DNA from: a virus
Length of the DNA stretch: 47,355 nt
Virus record (IMG/VR): IMGVR_UViG_3300045988_109730
Reading direction: 5' to 3' (one strand)
A program made the translations under genes and the position numbers. Of the stretch, positions 1 through 47,355 are shown one piece after another; position 1 is the first letter of the stretch; each line of letters begins with the position of its first letter. The notes under the pieces were generated by a model. The model was not told the origin of the DNA. It did not search any database and was given only the letters and a program-made list of their open reading frames with translations.

Positions 1-55
1 TGACAGCAACGGTTGATCCAGAAGGGTACGTTACATTTGAAACTATGCAGACAGC
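1..55. repeat. Terminal 55-bp overlap, identical to 47301-47355 (assembler circularisation signature)
   Basis: Exact identity of tgacagcaacggttgatccagaagggtacgttacatttgaaactatgcagacagc at both ends. The tail-fibre reading frame is continuous across the junction. Confidence 0.95.
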
Positions 56-776
56 GTTAAATACGCATACAGGAAACAAGAGCAACCCTCATAGTGTTAC
101 TAAGTCGCAAGTAGGCTTAGGGAACGTTCCGAACGTAGCGACAAATGATCAGACACCGACATATTCAGATACAACAACTCTTGTGACTTTATCAAGTGGC
201 GAGAAAATATCTATTGCATTTGCAAAGATTAAACTTGCAATTACAACTCTGATTAATCATCTTGCGAATAAAAGTAATCCTCACGGAGTTACTAAAAGCC
301 AAGTTGGATTAGGCAATGTGGAGAATAAAAGCAGTGCTACAATCCGTGGAGAATTAACCAAAGGTAATGTAACGACAGCCCTTGGTTATACGCCAGCAAA
401 TCAGACTGACATGACGAATGCACAGGATGCTATTACGCAGCTAAATTCTGACTTAAATAACAGAATAGAATTTACAATTACTAGCATAGATTCAAAATAT
501 GCATTCACCGGAAACAGTTATAAACATAATGGAAAAGTATATATAAATGGATATTTCCATTGCAATTCTCCTAGTGTTGGGATTACAACTTGTTTTTTTG
601 TTCCAGAAGGTTTTAGACCTAAAATAAAATGCGGATCGGCTTGCTATACCGATGATGATGTTAATTTTAATAATATTGGTGCTGTTAAAATTGACACAAA
701 TGGTGATATAACAATATATTTTCCTACAGTGTACTCAACATGTGTATATACCTCCATAGTATATGATATAGATTAA
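3..776 (+). CDS. Tail fibre protein, C-terminal part (continues from 46895-47300 across the circular junction)
   Basis: In frame with the ORF starting at 46895. Contains two copies of the tail-fibre repeat NKSNPH(S/G)VTKSQVGLGNV. Sits last in the baseplate/fibre module. Confidence 0.8.
   Translation, partial: TATVDPEGYVTFETMQTALNTHTGNKSNPHSVTKSQVGLGNVPNVATNDQTPTYSDTTTLVTLSSGEKISIAFAKIKLAITTLINHLANKSNPHGVTKSQVGLGNVENKSSATIRGELTKGNVTTALGYTPANQTDMTNAQDAITQLNSDLNNRIEFTITSIDSKYAFTGNSYKHNGKVYINGYFHCNSPSVGITTCFFVPEGFRPKIKCGSACYTDDDVNFNNIGAVKIDTNGDITIYFPTVYSTCVYTSIVYDID
435..451 (+). repeat. Left inverted repeat inside the tail fibre gene (acgcagctaaattctga, encodes TQLNS)
   Basis: 15/17 match (11 contiguous) to the reverse complement of 1059-1075. 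In codon phase in both genes. Confidence 0.55.
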
Positions 777-1087
777 TTTAATTTACGATAAATCATAAAA
801 TTAATCCTAACAACACCGTTTGTATCACTGGATAATCCTATGTTTATATTTAAATTTGTATTATCCCATTGTAAAGCAGCACCTGTTACCAGACCTTGAT
901 ACGCATTCCAATCACCGTTGCAAGCTGCTATATATAACTTTTCGTTATTTATGTCTGATATTTGCATGCCTAATGCTTTTGCAATTTCAGACTGACATCT
1001 TTGCCAGTAAATCATTTTGTTGATTGTTCCAGAAAATACTTTTGATAAAAATGCTCTTTCAGAATTTAGTTGTGTTGTTGAGAACAA
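773..1087 (-). CDS. Inverted ORF with no start signal: candidate alternative tail-fibre C-terminal (receptor-binding) cassette
   Basis: Fills the 325-bp gap after the fibre gene on the opposite strand. The ORF opens with TTG and has no Shine-Dalgarno. It begins with TTQLNSE, matching fibre ITQLNSD. Its C-terminus IGLSSDTNGVVRINF resembles fibre IGAVKIDTNGDITIYF. Confidence 0.45.
   Translation of the reverse strand: MFSTTQLNSERAFLSKVFSGTINKMIYWQRCQSEIAKALGMQISDINNEKLYIAACNGDWNAYQGLVTGAALQWDNTNLNINIGLSSDTNGVVRINFMIYRKLN
1059..1075 (-). repeat. Right inverted repeat (reverse complement acacaactaaattctga)
   Basis: Partner of 435-451. Lies at the 5' end of the inverted cassette. Confidence 0.55.
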
Positions 1088-1101
1088 GAAAGGAGAAAAA
1101 A

Positions 1102-2013
1102 GTGTCAGTAAAAACAGTACAAGCGACTATTAACGGTCAAACATATACACTGACTCTTAATAGTTCAACCGGCAAATATGAAGCTACGGTAACAGCTCCG
1201 TCGAAGAGTTCATACAATCAGAGTGGACATTATTACGGAGTAACGGTTAAGGTAACCGATGAGGCAGGAAACACAATCACAAAAGATGCAACCGACAGTA
1301 CGTTAGGATCATCACTGCAATTAAAGGTAAAAGAGAAGGTCGCTCCAGTTATTGCAATCGTGTCTCCAACGTCCGGATCATATTCGGCAAATAACAAGCC
1401 TGTAATTACCTGGAAGGTAACCGATTCCGATTCTGGTGTTAATCCAGCGACAATAGGCATCACGTTAGATAGCGGTACTAAGGTAACAGGCGATGCGATT
1501 ACTAAGACTTCGATCACAGGCGGATACCAGTGTACATATACACCTACAACAGCGTTGTCAGATGGAAGCCATACGATCAAGTTGGATGCATCTGATTATG
1601 ATGGCAACGCAGCAGCTACAAGCTCAACGTCATTTAAGGTAGATACAGTTCCACCAGTATTAACATTGTCCAGCCCAACGGATAAACTTATTACAAATCA
1701 AACTGCTTGCACAGTAAAAGGTAAAACAAACGATGCAACAAGCAGTCCTGTCACGGTAACAGTTAAACTTAATTCTTTAGCAGCAGAAGCAGTCACAGTT
1801 GGAAGCGATGGAGGCTTCAGCAAGGTTCTTACTCTTGCAGCAGGTACAAACACAATTACAGTTGTCGCAAAAGATGGTGCTGGTAAGACAACGACAATAA
1901 CACGTACCGTTACGTTAGACACAACCGCACCTGTGATCAAGAGTGTTACATTGACACCGAACCCAGTCGATGCTGGCAAAACATTTATCATATCCGTTGA
2001 AGTAACGGACTAG
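1102..2013 (+). CDS. Ig-like (bacterial Ig/He_PIG-type) repeat protein, probable tail-associated adhesin
   Basis: GTG start 6 nt after AAAGGAG (the track ORF starts upstream at 1024 with no RBS). Repeated beta-rich segments such as VAPVIAIVSP, VPPVLTLSSP and TAPVIKSVTLTP are typical of Ig-like domain repeats. Confidence 0.7.
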   Translation: MSVKTVQATINGQTYTLTLNSSTGKYEATVTAPSKSSYNQSGHYYGVTVKVTDEAGNTITKDATDSTLGSSLQLKVKEKVAPVIAIVSPTSGSYSANNKPVITWKVTDSDSGVNPATIGITLDSGTKVTGDAITKTSITGGYQCTYTPTTALSDGSHTIKLDASDYDGNAAATSSTSFKVDTVPPVLTLSSPTDKLITNQTACTVKGKTNDATSSPVTVTVKLNSLAAEAVTVGSDGGFSKVLTLAAGTNTITVVAKDGAGKTTTITRTVTLDTTAPVIKSVTLTPNPVDAGKTFIISVEVTD

Positions 2014-2023
2014 GTTAGTTGTT

Positions 2024-2275
2024 ATGGTAGTTCGACTAGAGGGGAATGTAAACGGAGAGTCAGTGATATTAACTAGATCCGCTGACTCTTTAGATTTATG
2101 GAAGTCCGTTATACCAGCCACATTAAACGGCAGGTATGTAATCGGATTAACTGCATATGATGAGGCAGGGAATGTAAGTAGCTATTCTACATACATACTT
2201 ACAGTAGATCTTAAAGCATTAAGAGTTTCACTGAAGCCTTTTGATTTGTATGCAACCTTGCACAACGAGAAATAA
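2024..2275 (+). CDS. Hypothetical protein (Ig-like-associated small protein)
   Basis: Co-directional, tightly packed ORF. The motif AYDEAGN is shared with the upstream Ig-like protein (TDEAGN). Confidence 0.5.
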   Translation: MVVRLEGNVNGESVILTRSADSLDLWKSVIPATLNGRYVIGLTAYDEAGNVSSYSTYILTVDLKALRVSLKPFDLYATLHNEK

Positions 2276-2298
2276 GAAGAAAAAAAGAGGAGGAGAAC

Positions 2299-2580
2299 AT
2301 GCAAAAAAAGAAAGTGATCATAATGCACCCGGGAGAATCCAGAACAGCAGTAATTACTATACATTCTATTAAAAATGAGAAATTTACAATTGAAAGTGCG
2401 GAGTATTCGCTAATATACATGAAAGACAAAGCTGAAGAAAGCACTGGAGTTTGTAATATTAAAGAACATGATATAGAAGCACTGATTTCTCCTCAAAAGC
2501 GTGGTACCTATACACTTGACATCAGATATGCAGTATTAGACGAAATCTTAATAGAGCATATAGAAGTGAAGGTGGTATGA
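2299..2580 (+). CDS. Hypothetical protein
   Basis: Strong RBS (aagaggagg) upstream of the ATG. Stop overlaps the next start. Confidence 0.6.
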   Translation: MQKKKVIIMHPGESRTAVITIHSIKNEKFTIESAEYSLIYMKDKAEESTGVCNIKEHDIEALISPQKRGTYTLDIRYAVLDEILIEHIEVKVV

Positions 2581-4878: not shown

Positions 4879-4889
4879 AATTTTGCAAT

Positions 4890-4963: not shown

Positions 4964-5989
4964 TTATTTCAACAAGAGAATAGTATCTCTCAATTGTTCC
5001 ACTGTTTTATGATTATAAACCCTATTTCCAACATCTTTAGATTTGTGCCCCATCAGCATATCAATACACTTTCTATTACCACCTGCATTATCAAGGAATG
5101 TTTCAAAAGTATGTCTAGCTTCATGAGGAGTTTTCTTCTTCTTTGTTATATAAGAAATAACAGTTTTCCATTCTTCATAAAAATCCCCTTTTTTAAATTT
5201 AGATCCTTCATCAGTTTCTAAAAAATATTCATTACTTTTCTTTAGCCGATTTTTCACAAACGGCATGATACGAGGATGGATTGGCACAATTCTGTTCTTC
5301 CCTGAAGAAGATTTGCTTCCGCCTTTAAAATATTCTTCTTCAAGATTGATCTGATCACATGTCATATTTAACAATTCCATTAATCTGAATCCGGTGTAAA
5401 TATAGATTAATACAATATCTACATTTTTTTGATCAGATATTTTCCACAGAGCTTCAACTTCTTTTTCAGTGAATGGAGTGCGTTTAGTTTCTCCCTGTTC
5501 TGTGCTGACAGAAATTATTTGAGAATACATCTTATCTATAATGTCTAATTCAAATGCAAAATTATCTAAATGCCACCAAAGTGCTTTGATATGAGATTGT
5601 GTAGCGTAACTACGACCACAATCGTCCATGGTTGCTTGCATATGATAAGCTCGTATTTGCCTATATTTCTTTCCGTACAGTTTTTGACAATGTTTATAAG
5701 CTGCTTTAAGTGTATATAAACGAGAACTTCCAAGTTTAGGAGCTTTTACTTCAAGCCATCGCTTATATAATTCTGCAAGAGTGACGCGATTGCGATCAAT
5801 ATTCCAAGGATTATCATTGTACCTGGCTAAAATAATATTTGCCTCTTCACGAGTAGCAGCATAGTCCACTGGGACCTGCCTTCCGTGTCCATCTTCATCG
5901 TATGTAGTGACTTTAATCACATAAGGGCGTGAACGATTACCTTTTAATTTTGTCACACTGCCGTAGCCGTTGGGGTTTCTTCTTGCCAT
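4964..5989 (-). CDS. int: Tyrosine recombinase / phage integrase
   Basis: C-terminal catalytic signature HEARHTF...LMGH...VYNH. N-terminal arm-binding-like segment GYGSVTKLKGNRSRPYVIKV. Confidence 0.9.
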   Translation of the reverse strand: MARRNPNGYGSVTKLKGNRSRPYVIKVTTYDEDGHGRQVPVDYAATREEANIILARYNDNPWNIDRNRVTLAELYKRWLEVKAPKLGSSRLYTLKAAYKHCQKLYGKKYRQIRAYHMQATMDDCGRSYATQSHIKALWWHLDNFAFELDIIDKMYSQIISVSTEQGETKRTPFTEKEVEALWKISDQKNVDIVLIYIYTGFRLMELLNMTCDQINLEEEYFKGGSKSSSGKNRIVPIHPRIMPFVKNRLKKSNEYFLETDEGSKFKKGDFYEEWKTVISYITKKKKTPHEARHTFETFLDNAGGNRKCIDMLMGHKSKDVGNRVYNHKTVEQLRDTILLLK

Positions 5990-6370: not shown

Positions 6371-7345
6371 TTATTTTTTTGTCTTAATATTATCTAAAAT
6401 ATGTTCTGGATCTTTTGTAAGTTCGACCACAATAAAATCAATTGCTTGCTGAGAATAGGTATATTGTGGTTGTTCATACTGTGTATGAATATAACAAAAC
6501 TTTTGATTGGCTTTTAATCCATAGTGTTTACAAAAATTATTAAAATGAAAACGGTTAAACTCAGTATTTTTACCATTATATTTTAACTGAATATTTTTCT
6601 TACTTATTTGTTTTTGTATAGCATCGATACAATGTTTTGCAGTATAACAGTGTGTTTTGTTTGGATCTTTCAGCTCTTTAATGATCTGCACAGGAGTATC
6701 AGCTGATTTATCAACTTTTACAAAAGAAGTAGCTTCTTCTTTTTTCTTTGTAATATAATGATGATGTTCTATGGTGATTGCAAATTTAGCATTATTATTC
6801 TGGGATAGAGTATCAATAGCATCACGTGTTTTGAATATTTTTGTAGCAATCTGTTCAGGATATTTTGCAATTATTTCAGATTCATTCAGGGCTTTCATGC
6901 TGACAGACAGTGTTAGAAAGTTTTGAGGAATGATTTCTGTCATGTCTATAGAATGAAATAACATCATTTTGTCATTAAAATTCAATATACAAGATTGAAA
7001 TAATGGAACATATACCATTTCATATTCTTCTACAATAAAGTGTGTACTGGTATTGCGAAGATCAATAATTTTTTCAAGATTGATACGAAGAGGATCTTTA
7101 TTATTTGTAAATACTTGTTGGATACAGTTTTCCAAAGATAAAGTTCGTTCTGGATTATCTTTATAATATATACTATTTTCGCCTTTTGCTTTTATCATAT
7201 AAGCTTTAAGCATTAATTCCCAGGCATTGCAGATAAAGAAACTAAAACCTTCAATTCTATATTTGATTGTTGGTTTATTGTATATTTCTATTGCCATGGT
7301 AAAAGCTTCTTTTGATTTGTCAAGTAGTTTTTCTGTAAGGTCCAT
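6371..7345 (-). CDS. HEPN-like (DUF3644-like) protein with RNxxxH motif, putative RNase effector
   Basis: ATG at 7345 lies 7 nt after AAGGAG. The track TTG start at 7402 would translate the palindrome. Motif RNTSTH is encoded at 7040-7057. The N-terminal domain is helical. Confidence 0.6.
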   Translation of the reverse strand: MDLTEKLLDKSKEAFTMAIEIYNKPTIKYRIEGFSFFICNAWELMLKAYMIKAKGENSIYYKDNPERTLSLENCIQQVFTNNKDPLRINLEKIIDLRNTSTHFIVEEYEMVYVPLFQSCILNFNDKMMLFHSIDMTEIIPQNFLTLSVSMKALNESEIIAKYPEQIATKIFKTRDAIDTLSQNNNAKFAITIEHHHYITKKKEEATSFVKVDKSADTPVQIIKELKDPNKTHCYTAKHCIDAIQKQISKKNIQLKYNGKNTEFNRFHFNNFCKHYGLKANQKFCYIHTQYEQPQYTYSQQAIDFIVVELTKDPEHILDNIKTKK

Positions 7346-7384
7346 ATGTTTACTCCTTATTATACCTGCTGTACTTTTTACTGC

Positions 7385-7404
7385 TTTGTCAGAGTCTGAC
7401 AAAA
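7385..7404. repeat. 20-bp palindromic element tttgtcagagtctgacaaaa, copy 2
   Basis: Identical to 6204-6223. Lies between the SAP gene stop and the HEPN-like gene start. Confidence 0.9.
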
Positions 7405-7409
7405 TAAAT

Positions 7410-8522
7410 CTATTTCAATCTCAACCGAATCAATTCCTCACTATACCCAAGTGCCAGTGCGATCTGATTCGTCGTAAATTCCTTCATCCATTTGTCATGA
7501 TCGTAATTATTATTGATTATATCTTCAACCAAACGTTTGAAAGTATTTTTATCGCATAAGACAAATTCATAAAAGTGATTCATTACTTCACAAGCATCTT
7601 CAAAAATTGTTTGAGAATAAAATTCTCTTAAATTATAAATTTTTCCTACAAGATATGTTAAATATGGTTCATTAAAAGAATCTGAATGTACACGTGTAGA
7701 AGAATATACGCCATCGTTATATAATGATATGCTGCTAAAATTTGAAGCCATAATCTCAAAGTAGAGTGCCTTTAGGTAGTACAGAAGAGAATCTTCCTGT
7801 TTACCTGAATCACCTAGCCATTCAGCCATAGATCGATAATTACATGTTAATAAATTGAATTTACTATTTTTCATGTATTCAAATTCTCGATCATTGAATA
7901 TAGACCAAATGATCTTATGAAAATCATAATTATTTGGACATGATTTCTTAGCAGATATATATTCGTCAATGCCTATCCCTAATTTGATTCTGTGGTTAAA
8001 CAGATCAATATAATCTTTGTGATTTTCCACAAAATATTTTCCCTTATTAGATAGAGAATAAAATTTTATATGATCAGCATTTAAAATATGCATTAATTCA
8101 TCAGAGGAATCAGTAGCTAATAGACGATTGATCAAATCTTCTTTGTTCCCTGATACATGTAGACGTAATTCTCTTAACAGAGCTTTTAACTCTGGTATTC
8201 TTAAAGAACGCAAGATATCTACCAATTCAGCATCTTTATAATAACCATCTTGGACTAATTTTTTATGAAATTTAGATGGGCTTTTGATTTCAAAATCATA
8301 CTGGAAGTATCTTGGATATTCGTTGTCGTCCATGATCGGAGTTCCAGTACTGTATCTGTCGAGGAATACAGCTGTATAAAACTCTCTTTTTTTTAGGGAA
8401 ACTTCTGAATCATTGACATAAGATGATGAATCCAAGGCGATGTTAGGAGTTGATGGTTCATCTAAAATTTCTTGCTTAGGTTCTTCGGGTTTCGACTTTC
8501 TGAAAAAATCAAAGATGCTCAT
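7410..8522 (-). CDS. SAP-domain protein with an ImmA-like C-terminal tail, function unknown
   Basis: SAP motif LRIPELKALLRELRLHVSGNKEDLINRLL. The last 23 aa, EFTTNQIALALGYSEELIRLRLK, resemble the ImmA C-terminus. ATGA overlap with the upstream gene. Confidence 0.7.
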   Translation of the reverse strand: MSIFDFFRKSKPEEPKQEILDEPSTPNIALDSSSYVNDSEVSLKKREFYTAVFLDRYSTGTPIMDDNEYPRYFQYDFEIKSPSKFHKKLVQDGYYKDAELVDILRSLRIPELKALLRELRLHVSGNKEDLINRLLATDSSDELMHILNADHIKFYSLSNKGKYFVENHKDYIDLFNHRIKLGIGIDEYISAKKSCPNNYDFHKIIWSIFNDREFEYMKNSKFNLLTCNYRSMAEWLGDSGKQEDSLLYYLKALYFEIMASNFSSISLYNDGVYSSTRVHSDSFNEPYLTYLVGKIYNLREFYSQTIFEDACEVMNHFYEFVLCDKNTFKRLVEDIINNNYDHDKWMKEFTTNQIALALGYSEELIRLRLK

Positions 8523-9931
8523 TCTTGATGTTCCTCCTCTCGTAGTTTCAGGGAGATTCTGTACTGATCAGCATCAGGAACATCAACAAATTCCACTGTT
8601 TTATCAAAATTATTCTTAACAACATCCTTGATCTCATCTAAGGAAACTCTGAAAAATTCTCTTCTTTGGTTTACAAGGTTTAATTTACGATCTTCAAAAG
8701 CTCTATGTAAGGCTGCTTCCAATGCTGGAGCATCCTCTGAAAAGATCATTGCATGTACATCAAATTTGAATGGAACAGAAGCATCTCCTAATTCATCTAC
8801 ACGATCTTGTGGATTTAATCTACGTGTCATACCGATTTTGTAAATACCTTCACCGAATGATCCAATGTTAGAAATTACATATACATAACCAGCTTTTTGG
8901 TTAGCCTCTCTGTAATCAATATCCTTGATTTTAGTGTCAATCTCGGAAAGAGATTGTATGATTTCCTCTTTCTTTTGATTTAAATCTTCTATATTGTCAT
9001 CAGAAGCGGTTGAAATTTGATGATTGATATTAGAAAGGGCTTGTTCGTAATGTTTGCGTTCTTTATCAATATTTTTACGTTGTTCTTTTAGTTCTTTTTG
9101 TAATCGAGCTTCTTCACGCTGTTGAGCTCTTAATTCTGCCTTTTGTTCCTTTTCACGCTGTTTTTGAATCTGATATTCGAGAGCTAATCTAAGCTCTTGA
9201 ATTTTCAGATCATAGTAATGAGCGGTTATGGCAATTGACATTGTTACACCCAATTTAGCAATAGCATTGAAACTTCGTTCCATTTTCTTAACAGATGTAT
9301 CATAGTTATTGTATTTTACCTTACTAATAATCTCATCACATTCACTGTTGAACGCACGAAGCAGTAGCTTCTGCATGTCTCTTACTAACTTTCGTCCTTT
9401 GGCTTCACTACCATTTACTTGCCATCCTATGTTCCCGGATACAGCTGTATCATCCTTGATCATTGCTTTCTGCTGGTTTCGTATATTTATGAGCTCTGCT
9501 TTATAAGCATCAGCGTTAGTAAAAGAGTAGCGTGGTTCATATAACCCGAAATCCTGAACAAGAACTTCATCAGAGAAAGTAATAAGTTCATTTTTCAATT
9601 CTTTTATATTAGAATTTAGCTCATTAATTTCGTCATTGTAAGCAAGAATAAGCGACTTTTGCTTAGAAATTTCTTCCATGTACTTATCATACTGTTCTGA
9701 AAGCTTTTGTTCTTGTTCCATTTTATCATGAGCAAATTTTACTTGTGATTCAGAAATCTGTTTTTGTAAAGATTCCAAATCCAACATTTCAGGTGTAAGC
9801 TTCGATTCCAATTTAGCTTTTTCGATTTCAAGATTAGCAATTGTTTTTTGCATTTCTAAATTAGAATTTTCTAATTCCTGAATCTTATCATTTAATTCGT
9901 TGTTTCCAAATATTGAATTTAATAACCCCAT
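8519..9931 (-). CDS. DUF4041-like protein with C-terminal T5orf172 (GIY-YIG-like) nuclease-type domain and long coiled coils
   Basis: C-terminal GYVYVISN..GIYKIGMTRRLNPQDRVDELG..FKFDVHAMIF..LHRAF..REFF. The central region is typical of DUF4041. Starts 10 nt after the immA stop. Confidence 0.75.
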   Translation of the reverse strand: MGLLNSIFGNNELNDKIQELENSNLEMQKTIANLEIEKAKLESKLTPEMLDLESLQKQISESQVKFAHDKMEQEQKLSEQYDKYMEEISKQKSLILAYNDEINELNSNIKELKNELITFSDEVLVQDFGLYEPRYSFTNADAYKAELINIRNQQKAMIKDDTAVSGNIGWQVNGSEAKGRKLVRDMQKLLLRAFNSECDEIISKVKYNNYDTSVKKMERSFNAIAKLGVTMSIAITAHYYDLKIQELRLALEYQIQKQREKEQKAELRAQQREEARLQKELKEQRKNIDKERKHYEQALSNINHQISTASDDNIEDLNQKKEEIIQSLSEIDTKIKDIDYREANQKAGYVYVISNIGSFGEGIYKIGMTRRLNPQDRVDELGDASVPFKFDVHAMIFSEDAPALEAALHRAFEDRKLNLVNQRREFFRVSLDEIKDVVKNNFDKTVEFVDVPDADQYRISLKLREEEHQE

Positions 9932-10375: not shown

Positions 10376-10813
10376 TCAGTCCTTTTTGTATTTTTTAGGT
10401 GTATATTTTTCCTTGTTCTTTTTCTTAGCCATCTCCATCCCAATTTCCATTGCGTTTAGAATAGATTCAATTGCTTCAGGAGAAGCAGGATCACCATCAA
10501 ACATTAGTCCTTCTTGGGATGTTAGTTTGTCTTTGGTTTGCTGTAGGATTTCTTCTATTTGTTTTGTGTCTCTTTTATTAAGTTCTGCAGAAGAAGATTT
10601 CTTTTCTACCAAATCCGATTTTTCTATTCCAAAATAATTAGCCATCATTTCTATTTTGTCAATTCGTGGATAGGTTCGTGCATGCATCCAATCTGATACG
10701 GTAGACATTTTAAAACCTAAGGTGTTGCACATTTCTGTTTGAGTAACATCGTTAGCCTTTAGATAGTATTTTATATTTCTAGCCATGACTTCTTTGTTTC
10801 CTAAGTCGCTCAT
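10376..10813 (-). CDS. XRE-family HTH lysogeny repressor (CI/ImmR-like)
   Basis: HTH_3-type N-terminus (NIKYYLKANDVTQTEMCNTLGFKMSTVSDWMH). Divergent from the cro-like gene. Confidence 0.85.
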   Translation of the reverse strand: MSDLGNKEVMARNIKYYLKANDVTQTEMCNTLGFKMSTVSDWMHARTYPRIDKIEMMANYFGIEKSDLVEKKSSSAELNKRDTKQIEEILQQTKDKLTSQEGLMFDGDPASPEAIESILNAMEIGMEMAKKKNKEKYTPKKYKKD

Positions 10814-10850
10814 TTACCAGTGCCTCCTTTCTTGATTTGAATATGTCTAT

Positions 10851-13001: not shown

Positions 13002-13410
13002 TAATGAGGTAAAAGAGCTGGAATATCCAGACGTGGGACTTAAATCATGGAAAAAGTTGAAAGAACACATCGGAAACAGATGTGAGCTAATTGAACACGT
13101 ACAGCCCAAGAGATTATATACAGAGATTGGTGCAGGAATTGAGATTAAAAATGTACCAGGATCAAAAGTAAGCATGTTGGTTGATGAAGAATTTTATTTT
13201 CATTGCGATGAAAATAAATTAAATAAGATAGCTTCATGGCTGTATGAGACAGATCGCCATGGATACCAGATTCTTGGTAATGCCTTGATTATTGGAGAAA
13301 AGTATGGAAATGCAGGAATTGAGTTTTGTGGAATGTCAGAAGAACAGTTTGATCTTGTCTTTCCTAAATTAAAAGAATTGGGAAAGAGGTTTAAAGATGC
13401 AGGAGATTGA
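12967..13410 (+). CDS. Hypothetical protein (possibly DUF3846-like)
   Basis: Co-directional ORF. The family assignment is from memory only. Confidence 0.5.
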   Translation: MTMGKMILITTDNEVKELEYPDVGLKSWKKLKEHIGNRCELIEHVQPKRLYTEIGAGIEIKNVPGSKVSMLVDEEFYFHCDENKLNKIASWLYETDRHGYQILGNALIIGEKYGNAGIEFCGMSEEQFDLVFPKLKELGKRFKDAGD

Positions 13411-14068
13411 GATTAGCAAAGGAATCAAACGGATTCAGTTCGATTCCTTTGATTCCTGGTTAAATGCCAGACACGGAATCGGTGGATCTGATGCATCTGC
13501 GGTATTAGGACTCAATCCATATAAAACCAATATAGAGCTTTATTTAGAAAAGACAGGACAGCGAATGGCTCCTGATATTTCAGATAAAGATTATGTAAAG
13601 TATGGGCATGATGCGGAGCCATTGCTTAGATCGCTGTTTGCACTGGATCATCCAGAGTATAAGGTTGAGTACTTCGGAGACAACATGATCCGAAACGAAA
13701 AGCATCCATGGGCGCATGCTTCTTTGGATGGAGAACTGACCGATCAGGATGGTCGCAAAGGAATCTTAGAAATTAAGACAACTAATATCCTACAAAGTAT
13801 GCAGCGTGAGAAGTGGAAAGATCAGATTCCGGACAACTATTACATACAGGTCCTACATTACCTGCTAGTTAGCGAATATGAGTTTGTTGAACTGAGAGCA
13901 CAGCTGAAATCAGTATGGCAGGGTCAGATCAGATTGGAGACAAAAGATTATCATATTGAGCGATTAGAGGCAGAAGAAGACATTGAGATATTAAAACAAG
14001 CGGAAGAAGAGTTCTGGCAGAAAGTTTTAAAAAGACAGCAGCCACATTTAATCCTTCCGGAAATATAA
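13397..14068 (+). CDS. YqaJ-like (lambda Exo-type, PD-(D/E)XK) recombination exonuclease
   Basis: GIGGSDASAVLGLNPYKT...YGHDAEP...ASLDGEL...GILEIKT. Lies upstream of RecT. Confidence 0.85.
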   Translation: MQEIEISKGIKRIQFDSFDSWLNARHGIGGSDASAVLGLNPYKTNIELYLEKTGQRMAPDISDKDYVKYGHDAEPLLRSLFALDHPEYKVEYFGDNMIRNEKHPWAHASLDGELTDQDGRKGILEIKTTNILQSMQREKWKDQIPDNYYIQVLHYLLVSEYEFVELRAQLKSVWQGQIRLETKDYHIERLEAEEDIEILKQAEEEFWQKVLKRQQPHLILPEI

Positions 14069-14081
14069 AAAGGAGAAATGT

Positions 14082-14990
14082 ATGGAACTTAAGATATACA
14101 ATCCACAGGAAGAGGGATTTCTGAAAGAGATTGACTGGAACTATGAAGAGTTAAAAATAGAAATCCAAGGAAAAGCAAATGATTACATGAATCTGGTTTA
14201 TACAGCAGATCAGGTAAAAGATGCCAAAAAAGATCGTGCAAATCTTAATAAATTTGTGGAAGCTTTAGAGAGCAAGCGAAAAGAAATTAAAAAACAGATT
14301 ACAGAACCATATTCAGCATTCGAGAAACAAGAGAAAGAACTGGTTGGTATTGTTAATAAAGCGATTGCAAATATTGATACGCAGATCAAAGGATATGAAG
14401 AAGCAACAAGACAGGAAAAACTTGAAAAGGTCAAAGAAATCTATGCAAAAACAATCGGTGGACTTGCTGATGTAGTAACGTTTGACAAAATTTTTAAAGA
14501 ATCCTGGCTGAATGTATCAACAACGTTTAAATCGATCACAAAGGAAATCACAGAAATTCGTGACAAGGTTGACAATGATTTATTTGTGATCAATGCAGAC
14601 ACGAGTTCCTTTGCTTATGAGATGAAAGAAGAGTATCTAAAGAACTTTGATCTCACTGCAGCGATTAACAAAAAACAAAAATTAGAAGAGACAGCAAAGC
14701 AGAAAGCAATATATGAAGAACAACTAAAAGAGGAAGAGGAACAAAGAAAACAACGATCACAAGAAGAAGCAAAGAAAGTAGTATTTGCAGGTAAAAGCAC
14801 AGAAAAGCCAGTAAAAGCACAGAAGCCAGTAAAAGCACAGAAGCCAGTGAATACAGAAGAAAAAATATCAACGATCACATTCCGATGTACTGTGAAAGAA
14901 CATAACTTTAAAGAAGTTAACGCAAGACTCAGTCTAGTACAAAAAGTATGTGAAGAATTTAAAATCATAGATCCAAAGGAGGAATTATAA
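14082..14990 (+). CDS. DUF1351-like protein of the phage recombination module
   Basis: Sits between the exonuclease and RecT. Coiled-coil rich. Contains the KPVKAQ tandem repeat. Confidence 0.6.
   Translation: MELKIYNPQEEGFLKEIDWNYEELKIEIQGKANDYMNLVYTADQVKDAKKDRANLNKFVEALESKRKEIKKQITEPYSAFEKQEKELVGIVNKAIANIDTQIKGYEEATRQEKLEKVKEIYAKTIGGLADVVTFDKIFKESWLNVSTTFKSITKEITEIRDKVDNDLFVINADTSSFAYEMKEEYLKNFDLTAAINKKQKLEETAKQKAIYEEQLKEEEEQRKQRSQEEAKKVVFAGKSTEKPVKAQKPVKAQKPVNTEEKISTITFRCTVKEHNFKEVNARLSLVQKVCEEFKIIDPKEEL
14805..14849 (+). repeat. In-frame 18-bp tandem repeat x2.5 (aagccagtaaaagcacag, KPVKAQ)
   Basis: Direct reading of the sequence. Confidence 0.9.
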
Positions 14991-14991
14991 A

Positions 14992-15867
14992 ATGGCAGTT
15001 GGAAACAGTTTAGCAAACAGACAGCAGAAAACAGGATTAACGGCATATCTTACAAATGATGCTGTAAAAAATCAGATTAATAATGTAGTCGGTGGTAAAA
15101 ACGGAGATCGTTTCATTGCTTCTATTGTATCTGCAGTACAGGTTAATTCAGATTTACAGGAATGTACAAATCCATCAATCTTAAGCGCTGCACTACTTGG
15201 AGAGTCTTTAAAACTCTCTCCATCACCACAGCTTGGACAGTATTACATGGTTCCATTCAGAAACAACAAAAAAGGATGTAAAGAAGCACAGTTTCAGCTT
15301 GGTTATAAAGGATACATTCAGTTAGCAATCCGCTCAGGGCAGTACAAAAAACTAAACGTTCTGGCAATTAAGGATGGGGAATTGGTTCGATTTGATCCAC
15401 TGAATGAAGAAATCGAAGTAAATCTGATCGATGATGAGGAAGTAAGGGAAGAAGCAAAGACGATCGGATACTATGCAATGTTTGAATATACAAACGGTTT
15501 CCGAAAAGCTATGTACTGGTCCAAAAAGAAAATGGAAGCACATGCATTAAAGTATTCCAAAGGGTATGCAGCAAAAAAAGGATATACATTCTGGGAGAAA
15601 GATTTTGATGGAATGGCTTATAAGACAATGCTTCGCCAGCTGATCAGTAAATGGGGAATCATGAGCATTGATATGCAGAATGCAATGGAATCTGATATGG
15701 CGGTGATCCATGAAGATGGAACAAAAGATTATGTAGATACAGTTTCAGAAGAAAATATTGTAGCAGATCAGGATCTGCAGGAAACGGCAGAGGAAACACC
15801 TGAACCAGAAAAACAGGAACTACAGGAAGAAACAACAAAAGAAGAACCACAGCAGTTCTTTAAATAA
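14992..15867 (+). CDS. recT: RecT-family single-strand annealing recombinase
   Basis: SILSAALLGESLKLSPSPQLGQYYMVPF...FQLGYKGYIQLAIRSGQY. Confidence 0.9.
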   Translation: MAVGNSLANRQQKTGLTAYLTNDAVKNQINNVVGGKNGDRFIASIVSAVQVNSDLQECTNPSILSAALLGESLKLSPSPQLGQYYMVPFRNNKKGCKEAQFQLGYKGYIQLAIRSGQYKKLNVLAIKDGELVRFDPLNEEIEVNLIDDEEVREEAKTIGYYAMFEYTNGFRKAMYWSKKKMEAHALKYSKGYAAKKGYTFWEKDFDGMAYKTMLRQLISKWGIMSIDMQNAMESDMAVIHEDGTKDYVDTVSEENIVADQDLQETAEETPEPEKQELQEETTKEEPQQFFK

Positions 15868-46894: not shown

Positions 46895-47355
46895 ATGTGG
46901 GAAAATACAGTAATTACAAATGCAGGTATTGAATTATTAAAGAATGCCTTAAGCGGAGGAACAATAACAGTAACAGCGATCAAGTCTGGTGCTGGTAAAG
47001 TTGACGTTAGTGCTTTGAAAAGTCAGACGGCGGTATCATCAATTAAGCAGTCTGGAACAGTACAGGGCGTGACAAAAACAAACGAAACAATCAAGATAGG
47101 AGTATTGTTTTCAAACGCTGGTTTATCTGCCGGATACAGCATGACACAGCTTGGAATTTATGCAAAAGGATCAACCGGAAGTGAAGTGTTGTTTGCGATT
47201 TCTCAAAGTACAACAGGGAAAGAAGTTCCGGCAGAATCGGCTATGCCGTCATGGTCGTTAGTACATAATTTTTACATCAAGCTTAATAATGATGTAAAAA
47301 TGACAGCAACGGTTGATCCAGAAGGGTACGTTACATTTGAAACTATGCAGACAGC
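46895..47355 (+). CDS. Tail fibre protein, N-terminal part (continues at 56-776 after the junction)
   Basis: ATG at 46895. The frame is continuous through the 55-bp overlap into 45-776, giving a 393-aa full protein. Confidence 0.8.
   Translation, partial: MWENTVITNAGIELLKNALSGGTITVTAIKSGAGKVDVSALKSQTAVSSIKQSGTVQGVTKTNETIKIGVLFSNAGLSAGYSMTQLGIYAKGSTGSEVLFAISQSTTGKEVPAESAMPSWSLVHNFYIKLNNDVKMTATVDPEGYVTFETMQT

Follow-up and report, generated by a model that had tools for sequence, protein, structure and literature searches.

The viral DNA analysed here, IMG/VR record IMGVR_UViG_3300045988_109730 (47,355 nucleotides (nt), hereafter the window, by which we mean the whole stretch at its full length), carries at positions 436-1074 what we take, with a probability of about 0.85, to be the invertible two-cassette segment of a tyrosine-recombinase fibre shufflon in a temperate myovirus-type phage of Anaerostipes hadrus. 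The segment begins inside a tail-fibre gene, whose expressed tip is encoded by a cassette designated 'a', and ends at a crossover site beyond a second, silent cassette, 'f', which lies promoterless on the opposite strand. An earlier note, made from the letters of this DNA alone, had proposed an alternative fibre C-terminus of this kind within an invertible segment; in relatives of the phage we find the segment flipped, with the alternative tip fused in frame to the fibre. The same relatives place it in a larger array of four crossover sites around the gene for an Xer-like tyrosine recombinase, of which the window would be a recombinase-less derivative. The features of the window (lengths in amino acids, aa) are:

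46895..47355, + strand: 5' part of the tail-fibre gene, with its ATG at 46895, continuing at position 1
1..451, + strand: fibre constant region including a crossover site, 99-100% identical in relatives whichever cassette comes next
436..451, + strand: recombination site A, CGCAG-CTAAATTCTGA, encoding (T)QLNS and the first two bases of the D/E codon
452..776, + strand: cassette 'a', the expressed fibre tip, 107 aa, stop at 774-776
773..1058, - strand: cassette 'f', the silent fibre tip, 94 aa, stop at 775-773, promoterless and without a Shine-Dalgarno sequence
1059..1074, - strand: recombination site D, CACAA-CTAAATTCTGA, also the junction of a deletion
1102..2013, + strand: gene for an immunoglobulin-like (Ig-like, Big_13-type) protein, the constant right boundary, with its ribosome-binding site in the flank of site D
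4964-5989: the phage's own tyrosine integrase

The last 55 nt of the window (47301-47355) are an exact copy of positions 1-55, and this terminal identity marks it as a circularly closed contig and a complete phage genome of 47.3 kb. The fibre gene spans the circle junction (46895..47300 joined to 1..776) and encodes a protein of 393 aa, of which residues 1-238 match PHROG 7037, tail fiber protein (E = 1.5e-40). Within it lies one arm of an inverted repeat, 435-451 (ACGCAGCTAAATTCTGA), that matches 1059-1075 at 15 of 17 positions; recomputation confirmed these values, together with the perfect 11-base-pair (bp) core, CTAAATTCTGA, at 441-451 (+) and 1059-1069 (-). The sites follow a 16-nt consensus, C[G/A]CA[G/A]CTAAATTCTGA, which encodes TQLNS[D/E]. 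The corresponding 16-nt block, CRCARCTAAATTCTGA, occurs exactly twice in the 47,355 nt, at these two sites and in inverted orientation, against a mean of 0.03 copies in shuffled sequence (none of 100 shuffles reached two). As the earlier note had stated, the repeat is in codon phase on both strands: the fibre reads ITQLNSD at 432-452 and the minus strand reads ..TTQLNSERAF.. in the same phase, with tails of 107 aa and 94 aa following the LNS[D/E] motif. The stop codons of the two cassettes overlap in the palindrome TTAA at 773-776 (TAA on each strand), so that the invertible segment is left without any non-coding DNA; its content is the two convergent cassettes, with no further open reading frame (ORF) and no assembly-chaperone gene.

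Some details of the original description needed correction. The minus-strand frame runs open to its end at 773 from a stop a little upstream of 1087, and possible starts do exist in it, namely TTG 1087 and, further in, the ATG of codon 25 (1015-1013), though neither is preceded by a purine-rich Shine-Dalgarno sequence, as had been noted. Gene callers take the internal ATG and report an 80-aa ORF labelled hypothetical protein. The gap after the fibre gene has the 325 bp assigned to it (777-1101), and the next plus-strand gene starts with GTG at 1102, preceded by AGGAG; the minus-strand frame is not its sole ORF, however, since it also holds one of 67 aa with a TTG start on the plus strand (820-1023). 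The proposed resemblance of the two tails did not hold up: BLASTP of the single pair gave only E = 0.011 over 29 aa, and no match with E < 0.05 was found among representatives longer than 60 aa of 23 of the 26 cassette clusters described below.

To place the window among its relatives we used about 100 related loci (numbered here with the prefix L), drawn from three look-ups: with a neighbouring 93-aa protein, with the Ig-like protein, which was searched in IMG/VR, and with the window's exact Ig-like protein, which was looked up separately. By the source names and assemblies of the matches, these relatives are prophages of A. hadrus. Both orientations of the segment exist among them, as the earlier note's reading had called for. 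The stretch 433-1075 aligns to L007 in reverse at 99.2% identity, which puts cassette f in frame behind the fibre, and the same opposite orientation of the 607-bp segment, with f at site A, is found in L054, L055, L051 and L095, while a stands at site A in L001, L009, L023, L064 and the window. The breakpoints fall exactly at the 11-bp core. In L095, whose flanks show no mismatch to the window over 4,350 nt up to 451 and over 3,822 nt from 1059, the segment lies the other way round, with 451 and 1059 as its exact limits; likewise, the homology of the window fibre to L095, L096 and L099 stops precisely at 451. The fibre of L001 differs from that of the window by rare substitutions only, in flanking DNA 99.5-100% identical, and L094 shows 100% identity with the window across 8,779 nt. 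Exact junctions in IMG/VR join f to site A on 10 contigs and a to site A on 4, so the window's silent tip is in use at least as often as its expressed one.

Conservation of the site itself points the same way. The 11-bp core is invariant in 129 sites, and the block C.CA.CTAAATTCTGA is kept across all of them, while the cassette side (3' of the core) varies, which makes the site asymmetric. The flanks of two of the sites in the full array, C and D, have 24 nt in common. The minus-strand ORF itself lacks its own start signals. These comparisons bear directly on whether a chance inverted repeat might simply lie beside an ordinary small gene, such as one for a fibre chaperone. Taken alone, an inverted repeat of 11 bp inside a 650-bp stretch would be nothing remarkable in an AT-rich genome, and the ORF is annotated as a hypothetical protein; set against this are the shuffle expectation for the 16-nt block, the invariance of the core, the lack of a ribosome-binding site, and the in-frame fusion of the ORF to the fibre in many relatives. 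We give a chance origin next to no credence: judged by sequence comparison, that explanation is refuted, and the stretch is a genuine invertible segment of a fibre shufflon. One variant site was seen, in L030, where the core of site C (4848) carries a 1-nt insertion (CTAAAATTCTGA) and may be inactivated.

The full arrangement is seen in about 20 relatives (including L001, L004 and L007-L010), in which a gene for a 331-aa tyrosine recombinase lies between the fibre and Ig-like genes. These loci have four cores in the orientation + - + - (A+, B-, C+, D-): site A is in the fibre gene, B just upstream and C just downstream of the recombinase gene, and D beside the Ig-like gene, which follows site D directly in every shufflon-bearing locus. 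Each of the intervals A-B and C-D holds two convergent promoterless cassettes that start straight after the core and in frame, giving three silent cassettes in these relatives and one in the window. Cassette a, expressed in the window, is silent at site B, C or D in other loci. The cassette pool comprises 26 clusters of 82-119 aa; sorting the 23 representatives of more than 60 aa by sequence similarity leaves 13 groups, between which none can be detected. Cassette f belongs to no PHROG family, and a homology search with it returned just 41 close relatives, all short stand-alone ORFs in A. hadrus phage contigs, with no distant homologue and no annotation among them. Single-sequence AlphaFold2 models of both tips were unusable (predicted local distance difference test scores of 44 and 46). 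Beside site B, directly upstream of the recombinase gene, there is a palindrome (CTGCGGA, 13 nt, TCCGCAG; L009 3032-3058), and three sequence variants of it, from different loci, keep their pairing (GCGGAGT..ACTCCGC, TTGCGGAGT..ACTCCGCAA); it could serve the recombinase as an additional binding arm, or form a hairpin with a regulatory role. The length of the fibre constant region also varies, from the 393-aa fibre of the window to fibres of 464-477 aa (window 267-451 compared with L004, L006, L007, L009 and L010), the longer ones having one more copy, about 79% identical, of a 'NKSNPHGVTKSQVGLGNV...' repeat unit.

Within this array, rearrangement extends beyond the flip at site A. The a/f segment also occupies the second (C-D) position, in both orientations (L008, L053, L062); the same two segments stand at exchanged positions in L008 and L009; L018, L027 and L100 have the recombinase module, too, in inverted orientation; and one identical 607-nt segment allele recurs in 11 loci, in every position and orientation.

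The recombinase has a Phage_integrase domain plus SAM_1/SAM_4 and no arm-binding domain. Its best NCBIfam matches are XerA, XerC and XerD, all under the equivalog cut-offs, and R189, K213/K216, H278, R281, H304 and Y314 are invariant in an alignment of 11 sequences reaching down to 39% identity. We infer that this Xer-like protein is the catalyst of the rearrangements. Its nearest counterparts in the phage collection are 27-39% identical and come from Clostridia phages and faecal contigs, where they are called 'integrase' if annotated at all. A profile scan of species-representative genomes gave generic Xer-like matches of at most 40% identity, which are uninformative on distribution. Three cultured Clostridia phages, Terrisporobacter phage TPELB_ph1 (L091), Clostridium phage phiCp-D (L092) and phiCs5676-1 (H6), have an Xer-like 'integrase' (27-35% identical) between their tail-fibre and holin genes; the genome of TPELB_ph1 encodes another integrase at a different place. 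These proteins may be fibre invertases; around those of TPELB_ph1 and phiCp-D, no shufflon-like inverted repeats stood above the AT-rich background.

In the proposed mechanism, the recombinase would exchange strands within the 11-bp core. Recombination between inverted sites would flip one segment, the recombinase module or the whole array, and any of the four tips could be joined in frame to the constant fibre. Between direct pairs (A with C, or B with D) it would irreversibly remove the recombinase together with one segment. The window would be a B-by-D deletion product, retaining site A, cassette a, cassette f and site D. The tips, lying at the distal end of the fibre, would set receptor or host specificity.

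No homologue of the shufflon recombinase is encoded anywhere in the window, and a tblastn search of the window with a Hin query found no serine invertase. Because the window is a whole circular phage, the lack of an invertase applies to the entire genome and not just to the neighbourhood of the segment. Some other enzyme might have made the rearrangements: the phage integrase (4964-5989), host XerC/D, or the phage's RecT and YqaJ exonuclease working on short blocks. The window does encode the integrase, RecT and YqaJ, and the 24 nt common to the flanks of sites C and D could be read in favour of such a route. We tried the integrase as a candidate invertase and set it aside: it has the catalytic-domain superfamily in common with the shufflon recombinase and nothing more, and the prophage/host junction near 4880 is unlike the shufflon site. 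The breakpoints lie within an 11-16-nt block, too short for efficient homologous recombination; inversion between short inverted repeats, at four defined positions, is a defining mark of site-specific recombination; and about 20 relatives have a dedicated recombinase inside the shufflon itself. Action by any of these other enzymes thus seems very improbable.

The loss of the recombinase can be traced by alignment. The window matches L001 and L023 up to position 1069 and again from 1059, and the two alignments overlap on the core alone (1059-1069), the signature of recombination between the direct sites B and D. The interval skipped measures 1,868 bp in L001 and 1,740 bp in L023 and contains the B flank, the recombinase gene, the C flank and the second segment; we infer that the deletion was site-specific. 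Recombinase-less loci with two sites are frequent: in the first sample, 15 of some 36 complete loci are of this kind, among them L006 (the complete genome CP107212.1) and L005 (a contig of 1.4 Mb). Among the 24 contigs of the window's lineage (those with the exact Big_13 protein), about 17 have the arrangement A:a..f:D, 2 are flipped, 4 have other segments and 1 has the recombinase.

Several points weigh against this explanation of the locus as a whole. The catalytic role of the Xer-like protein is assigned from its position and protein family, and the receptor-binding role of the tips from their position, with cassettes that match no annotated family. The evidence for rearrangement lies in differences between assembled genomes. 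The inverted segment of L095 differs from that of the window despite identical flanks (at 5 positions within the 607-nt segment, or 7 in a 635-nt alignment that includes the sites), which means that the allele was replaced and not simply flipped in recent times. Assemblies, moreover, tend to break here: of 80 contigs from IMG/VR, 10 have their first base 21-91 nt past site D (L012, L013, L016, L017, L025, L026, L028, L033, L038, L043), and many recombinase contigs are 1.0-1.5 kb long (P0001 and similar, L093), about the length of the B-to-C module. In addition, 5 of 14 contigs with an A junction stop within 135 nt of it. Such breakage of short-read assemblies at the shufflon hints at mixed arrangements within samples.

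It is therefore conceivable that the deletion is an artefact of assembly collapse, in which the real phage has the recombinase module and a second segment and the assembler joined the fibre, the a/f segment and the Big_13 gene, leaving the other parts of a shuffling population as small orphan contigs. The window does resemble a short-read circular contig with a 55-nt terminal overlap, the broken and short contigs just described would fit, and L100, of the same lineage, has the recombinase on a contig that stops inside that gene. On the other hand, recombinase-less loci are present in the complete genome and the 1.4-Mb contig, and the identical arrangement recurs in the roughly 17 contigs from different samples, integrated prophages included. 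The repeats in common (16-24 nt) are much shorter than assembly k-mers, so that a contiguous path from site A through the segment to site D needs both junctions to be dominant in the sample. Collapse is accordingly unlikely in our view, and the recombinase-less state of the window is very probably real.

With its sites and both cassettes intact, the deleted locus should still be capable of inversion or exchange, but only if a recombinase acts in trans, supplied for example by a co-resident recombinase-bearing prophage; otherwise the fibre would be fixed in its 'a' form. The window copy is probably locked unless such a relative provides the enzyme. Whether the locus escapes this fate, with a recombinase-bearing relative acting on sites A and D to flip or swap the segment, is a question on which the data pull in two directions. 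Phages without the recombinase whose flanks are 99.9-100% identical to those of the window have the segment flipped (L095) or have different segments (L096, L097, L099), and four cassette pairs occur in both orientations among recombinase-less loci. Different segments within identical flanks, together with the L095 allele, indicate that segments have been replaced and not merely flipped. Across loci L001-L065 the segments are 99.8% identical (median), whereas the adjacent Big_13 gene is 88% identical (median; minimum 75%), and segment identity falls within about 14 nt of the cores. Recombinase alleles are likewise incongruent with their flanks: their identity is 100% between loci whose Big_13 genes are 81% identical, and 77.5% between loci with Big_13 at 100%. 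Near-identical segments in diverged flanks and incongruent recombinases argue that site-bounded modules move between lineages, by a route that would be co-infection, exchange between prophages, or excised circles.

Some contigs combine the arms of two loci. In L027 (2225) and L053 (2043) a fifth flank type (TTTTTTCCTTTCCGCAACA[A/G]CACAG) joins the shufflon to another lineage's inverted lysis module, giving two 'right arms' and no fibre, and in L114 the a/f segment lies between two fibre constant regions, that is, two 'left arms'. Recombination between two prophages, as action in trans would allow, could have yielded such contigs as reciprocal products; alternatively, they may be assembly chimeras formed through the common 607-bp segment. 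Repeated independent deletions in recombinase-bearing ancestors with already exchanged segments could also produce the patterns described above; among the loci compared, no pair of recombinase-less loci is identical save for a clean flip; and 17 of the 24 contigs of the window's lineage keep the a..f orientation, against 2 that are flipped. We regard action in trans as possible but less likely than not. Equally tentative is the broader proposal that the 16-nt sites delimit modules (segments and recombinase) that move site-specifically between co-resident phages, whether by cassette exchange between inverted sites or by excision and re-integration of a circle carrying the recombinase and a segment. 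If it holds, A. hadrus phages would have in common an integron-like stock of fibre tips, with 13 or more unrelated ones in it, and recombinase-less phages would be 'clients' that are re-tipped, or re-armed with a recombinase, on meeting a recombinase-bearing relative.

The principle of such a switch is already known. The closest parallel is the Rin shufflon of Bifidobacterium breve and B. longum prophages, in which an Xer-like tyrosine invertase acting at 11-bp repeats varies the receptor-binding protein (Mavrich et al. 2018, PMC6109161) and which is also found in Eggerthella lenta prophages (PMC8778435). Like the system described here, Rin is a phage-encoded shufflon that varies the C-terminus of a fibre or receptor-binding protein, its inversions were found by genome comparison, its Xer-like recombinase lacks an arm-binding domain and is separate from the phage integrase, its short asymmetric 11-bp crossover repeats (rix) lie at the boundary between constant and variable regions, and its variable cassettes are promoterless and mutually dissimilar. 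The two differ in site sequence (TTCCCTAACCC in Rin, unrelated to CTAAATTCTGA here), in the position of the recombinase (at one end of the cassette array in Rin, between two segments and itself invertible here), in their carriers (Actinobacteria siphoviruses versus a Lachnospiraceae myovirus) and in how common recombinase-less deletion derivatives are here. The window has the Rin-type features of a constant fibre gene with an in-frame site, promoterless cassettes behind the repeat, and breakpoints at the repeats as seen among genomes; the resident tyrosine recombinase is absent from it, though present in about 20 related loci, which makes it a recombinase-less derivative of a Rin-type shufflon variant rather than a complete member. 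A second bifidophage locus, in which about 500 bp are inverted at an 8-bp repeat without a flanking recombinase (PMC6109161), is analogous to this state. BV01-like phages of Phocaeicola vulgatus have a fibre shufflon with read-level evidence (2026 preprint, PMC13596623), where our evidence is from genome comparisons. That system resembles ours as a multi-cassette shufflon of gut phages that overlaps the 3' end of the fibre gene, with a recombinase beside it and directional 10-bp motifs with conserved extensions; it differs in phylum, in its motif (TGGGAGAACT), in generating six isoforms from three cassettes, and in having the recombinase outside the array.

The shufflon of plasmid R64 (IncI1), with its recombinase Rci, is also driven by a tyrosine recombinase through multiple inversions among alternately oriented short sites, and it exchanges C-terminal segments in PilV, a specificity protein resembling an adhesin. 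Its sfx sites are conserved on one side only. There, the target is a conjugative-pilus adhesin and rci lies outside the array, whereas here the target is a phage fibre and not pilV, the recombinase is inside, and it scores best against Xer models. Rci reportedly does not delete between direct repeats, while deletion products are frequent here. The earlier note had compared the segment with Mu G and P1 C, and the logic of that comparison stands: in these systems, as in e14 P and p15B Min, inversion swaps the fibre C-terminus for a promoterless alternative on the opposite strand, and Min, as here, undergoes multiple inversions. The enzyme class does not carry over, since Gin, Cin, Pin and Min are serine invertases, no serine recombinase was found in the window or its relatives, and the recombinase of the relatives is of the tyrosine type. 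The serine systems recombine at 26-bp sites, with a Fis-dependent enhancer, and genes for fibre-assembly chaperones are also part of their segments, where the segments described here hold cassettes only. What is distinct in the A. hadrus phages is a recombinase placed inside the array as an invertible module, a + - + - layout that leads to its loss in one step and to frequent locked derivatives, and the exchange of modules across lineages.

A. hadrus is a widespread butyrate-producing commensal of the human gut and its phage is very common, one protein of this phage being indexed in about 16,000 assembly blocks. Diversity-generating retroelements are the mechanism usually cited so far for gut Firmicutes phages; four tips per genome, from at least 13 unrelated families, would offer such phages a testable host-range switch. 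The layout predicts self-deletion, and the frequent recombinase-less genomes are a natural system in which to study the maintenance and loss of a switch and its action in trans. There are practical pitfalls, too: annotation turns silent cassettes into hypothetical proteins and the recombinase into an integrase, and assembly from short reads breaks at the shufflon or may mis-join there. According to Milman et al., programmed inversion has phage tail genes among its targets, and a 2026 preprint in which an A. hadrus myophage was induced mentions diversity-generating retroelements and not a shufflon. In a limited literature search, no account of this system came up for A. hadrus phages.

The surrounding genes are in keeping with a complete circular genome of a temperate, myovirus-type phage, which is what the window is. 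Tail sheath, tape measure, Baseplate_J and Mu Gp48-like genes lie upstream of the fibre gene, which follows the last two. Downstream, the Ig-like gene is succeeded by small genes, an amidase endolysin, the attachment (att) region at about 4880 and the tyrosine integrase. The prophage/host junction at about 4880 (also L094 8779) reads ..TATGGTATAATAA, with divergent sequence after it, and lies upstream of a gene for a glycogen-synthase-like glycosyltransferase (Glyco_transf_5/Glycos_transf_1). A blastn search with window positions 1-2300 against 50,697 phage records returned no relative, just one 70-nt match to the fibre repeat.

A more distant lineage (L071 7684-10833, also L067-L089) has a 360-aa recombinase, 38% identical, after a 134-aa fibre-tip gene, whose C-terminal part, judged by eye, resembles cassette 'c'. 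This locus has its own inverted repeat (7822-7842 and 10804-10824, ..GCACTAAACAGTAAT.., encoding INALNSN) and a minus-strand ORF of 149 aa, and is probably a second type of shufflon with a different core. Finally, defence-like genes lie beside the integrase of the window, at 6371-9931 (minus strand) and 13397-15867; the set comprises a DUF3644 protein with an EC042_2821 restriction-endonuclease-like domain, a SAP-domain protein, and a DUF4041 plus T5orf172 protein.

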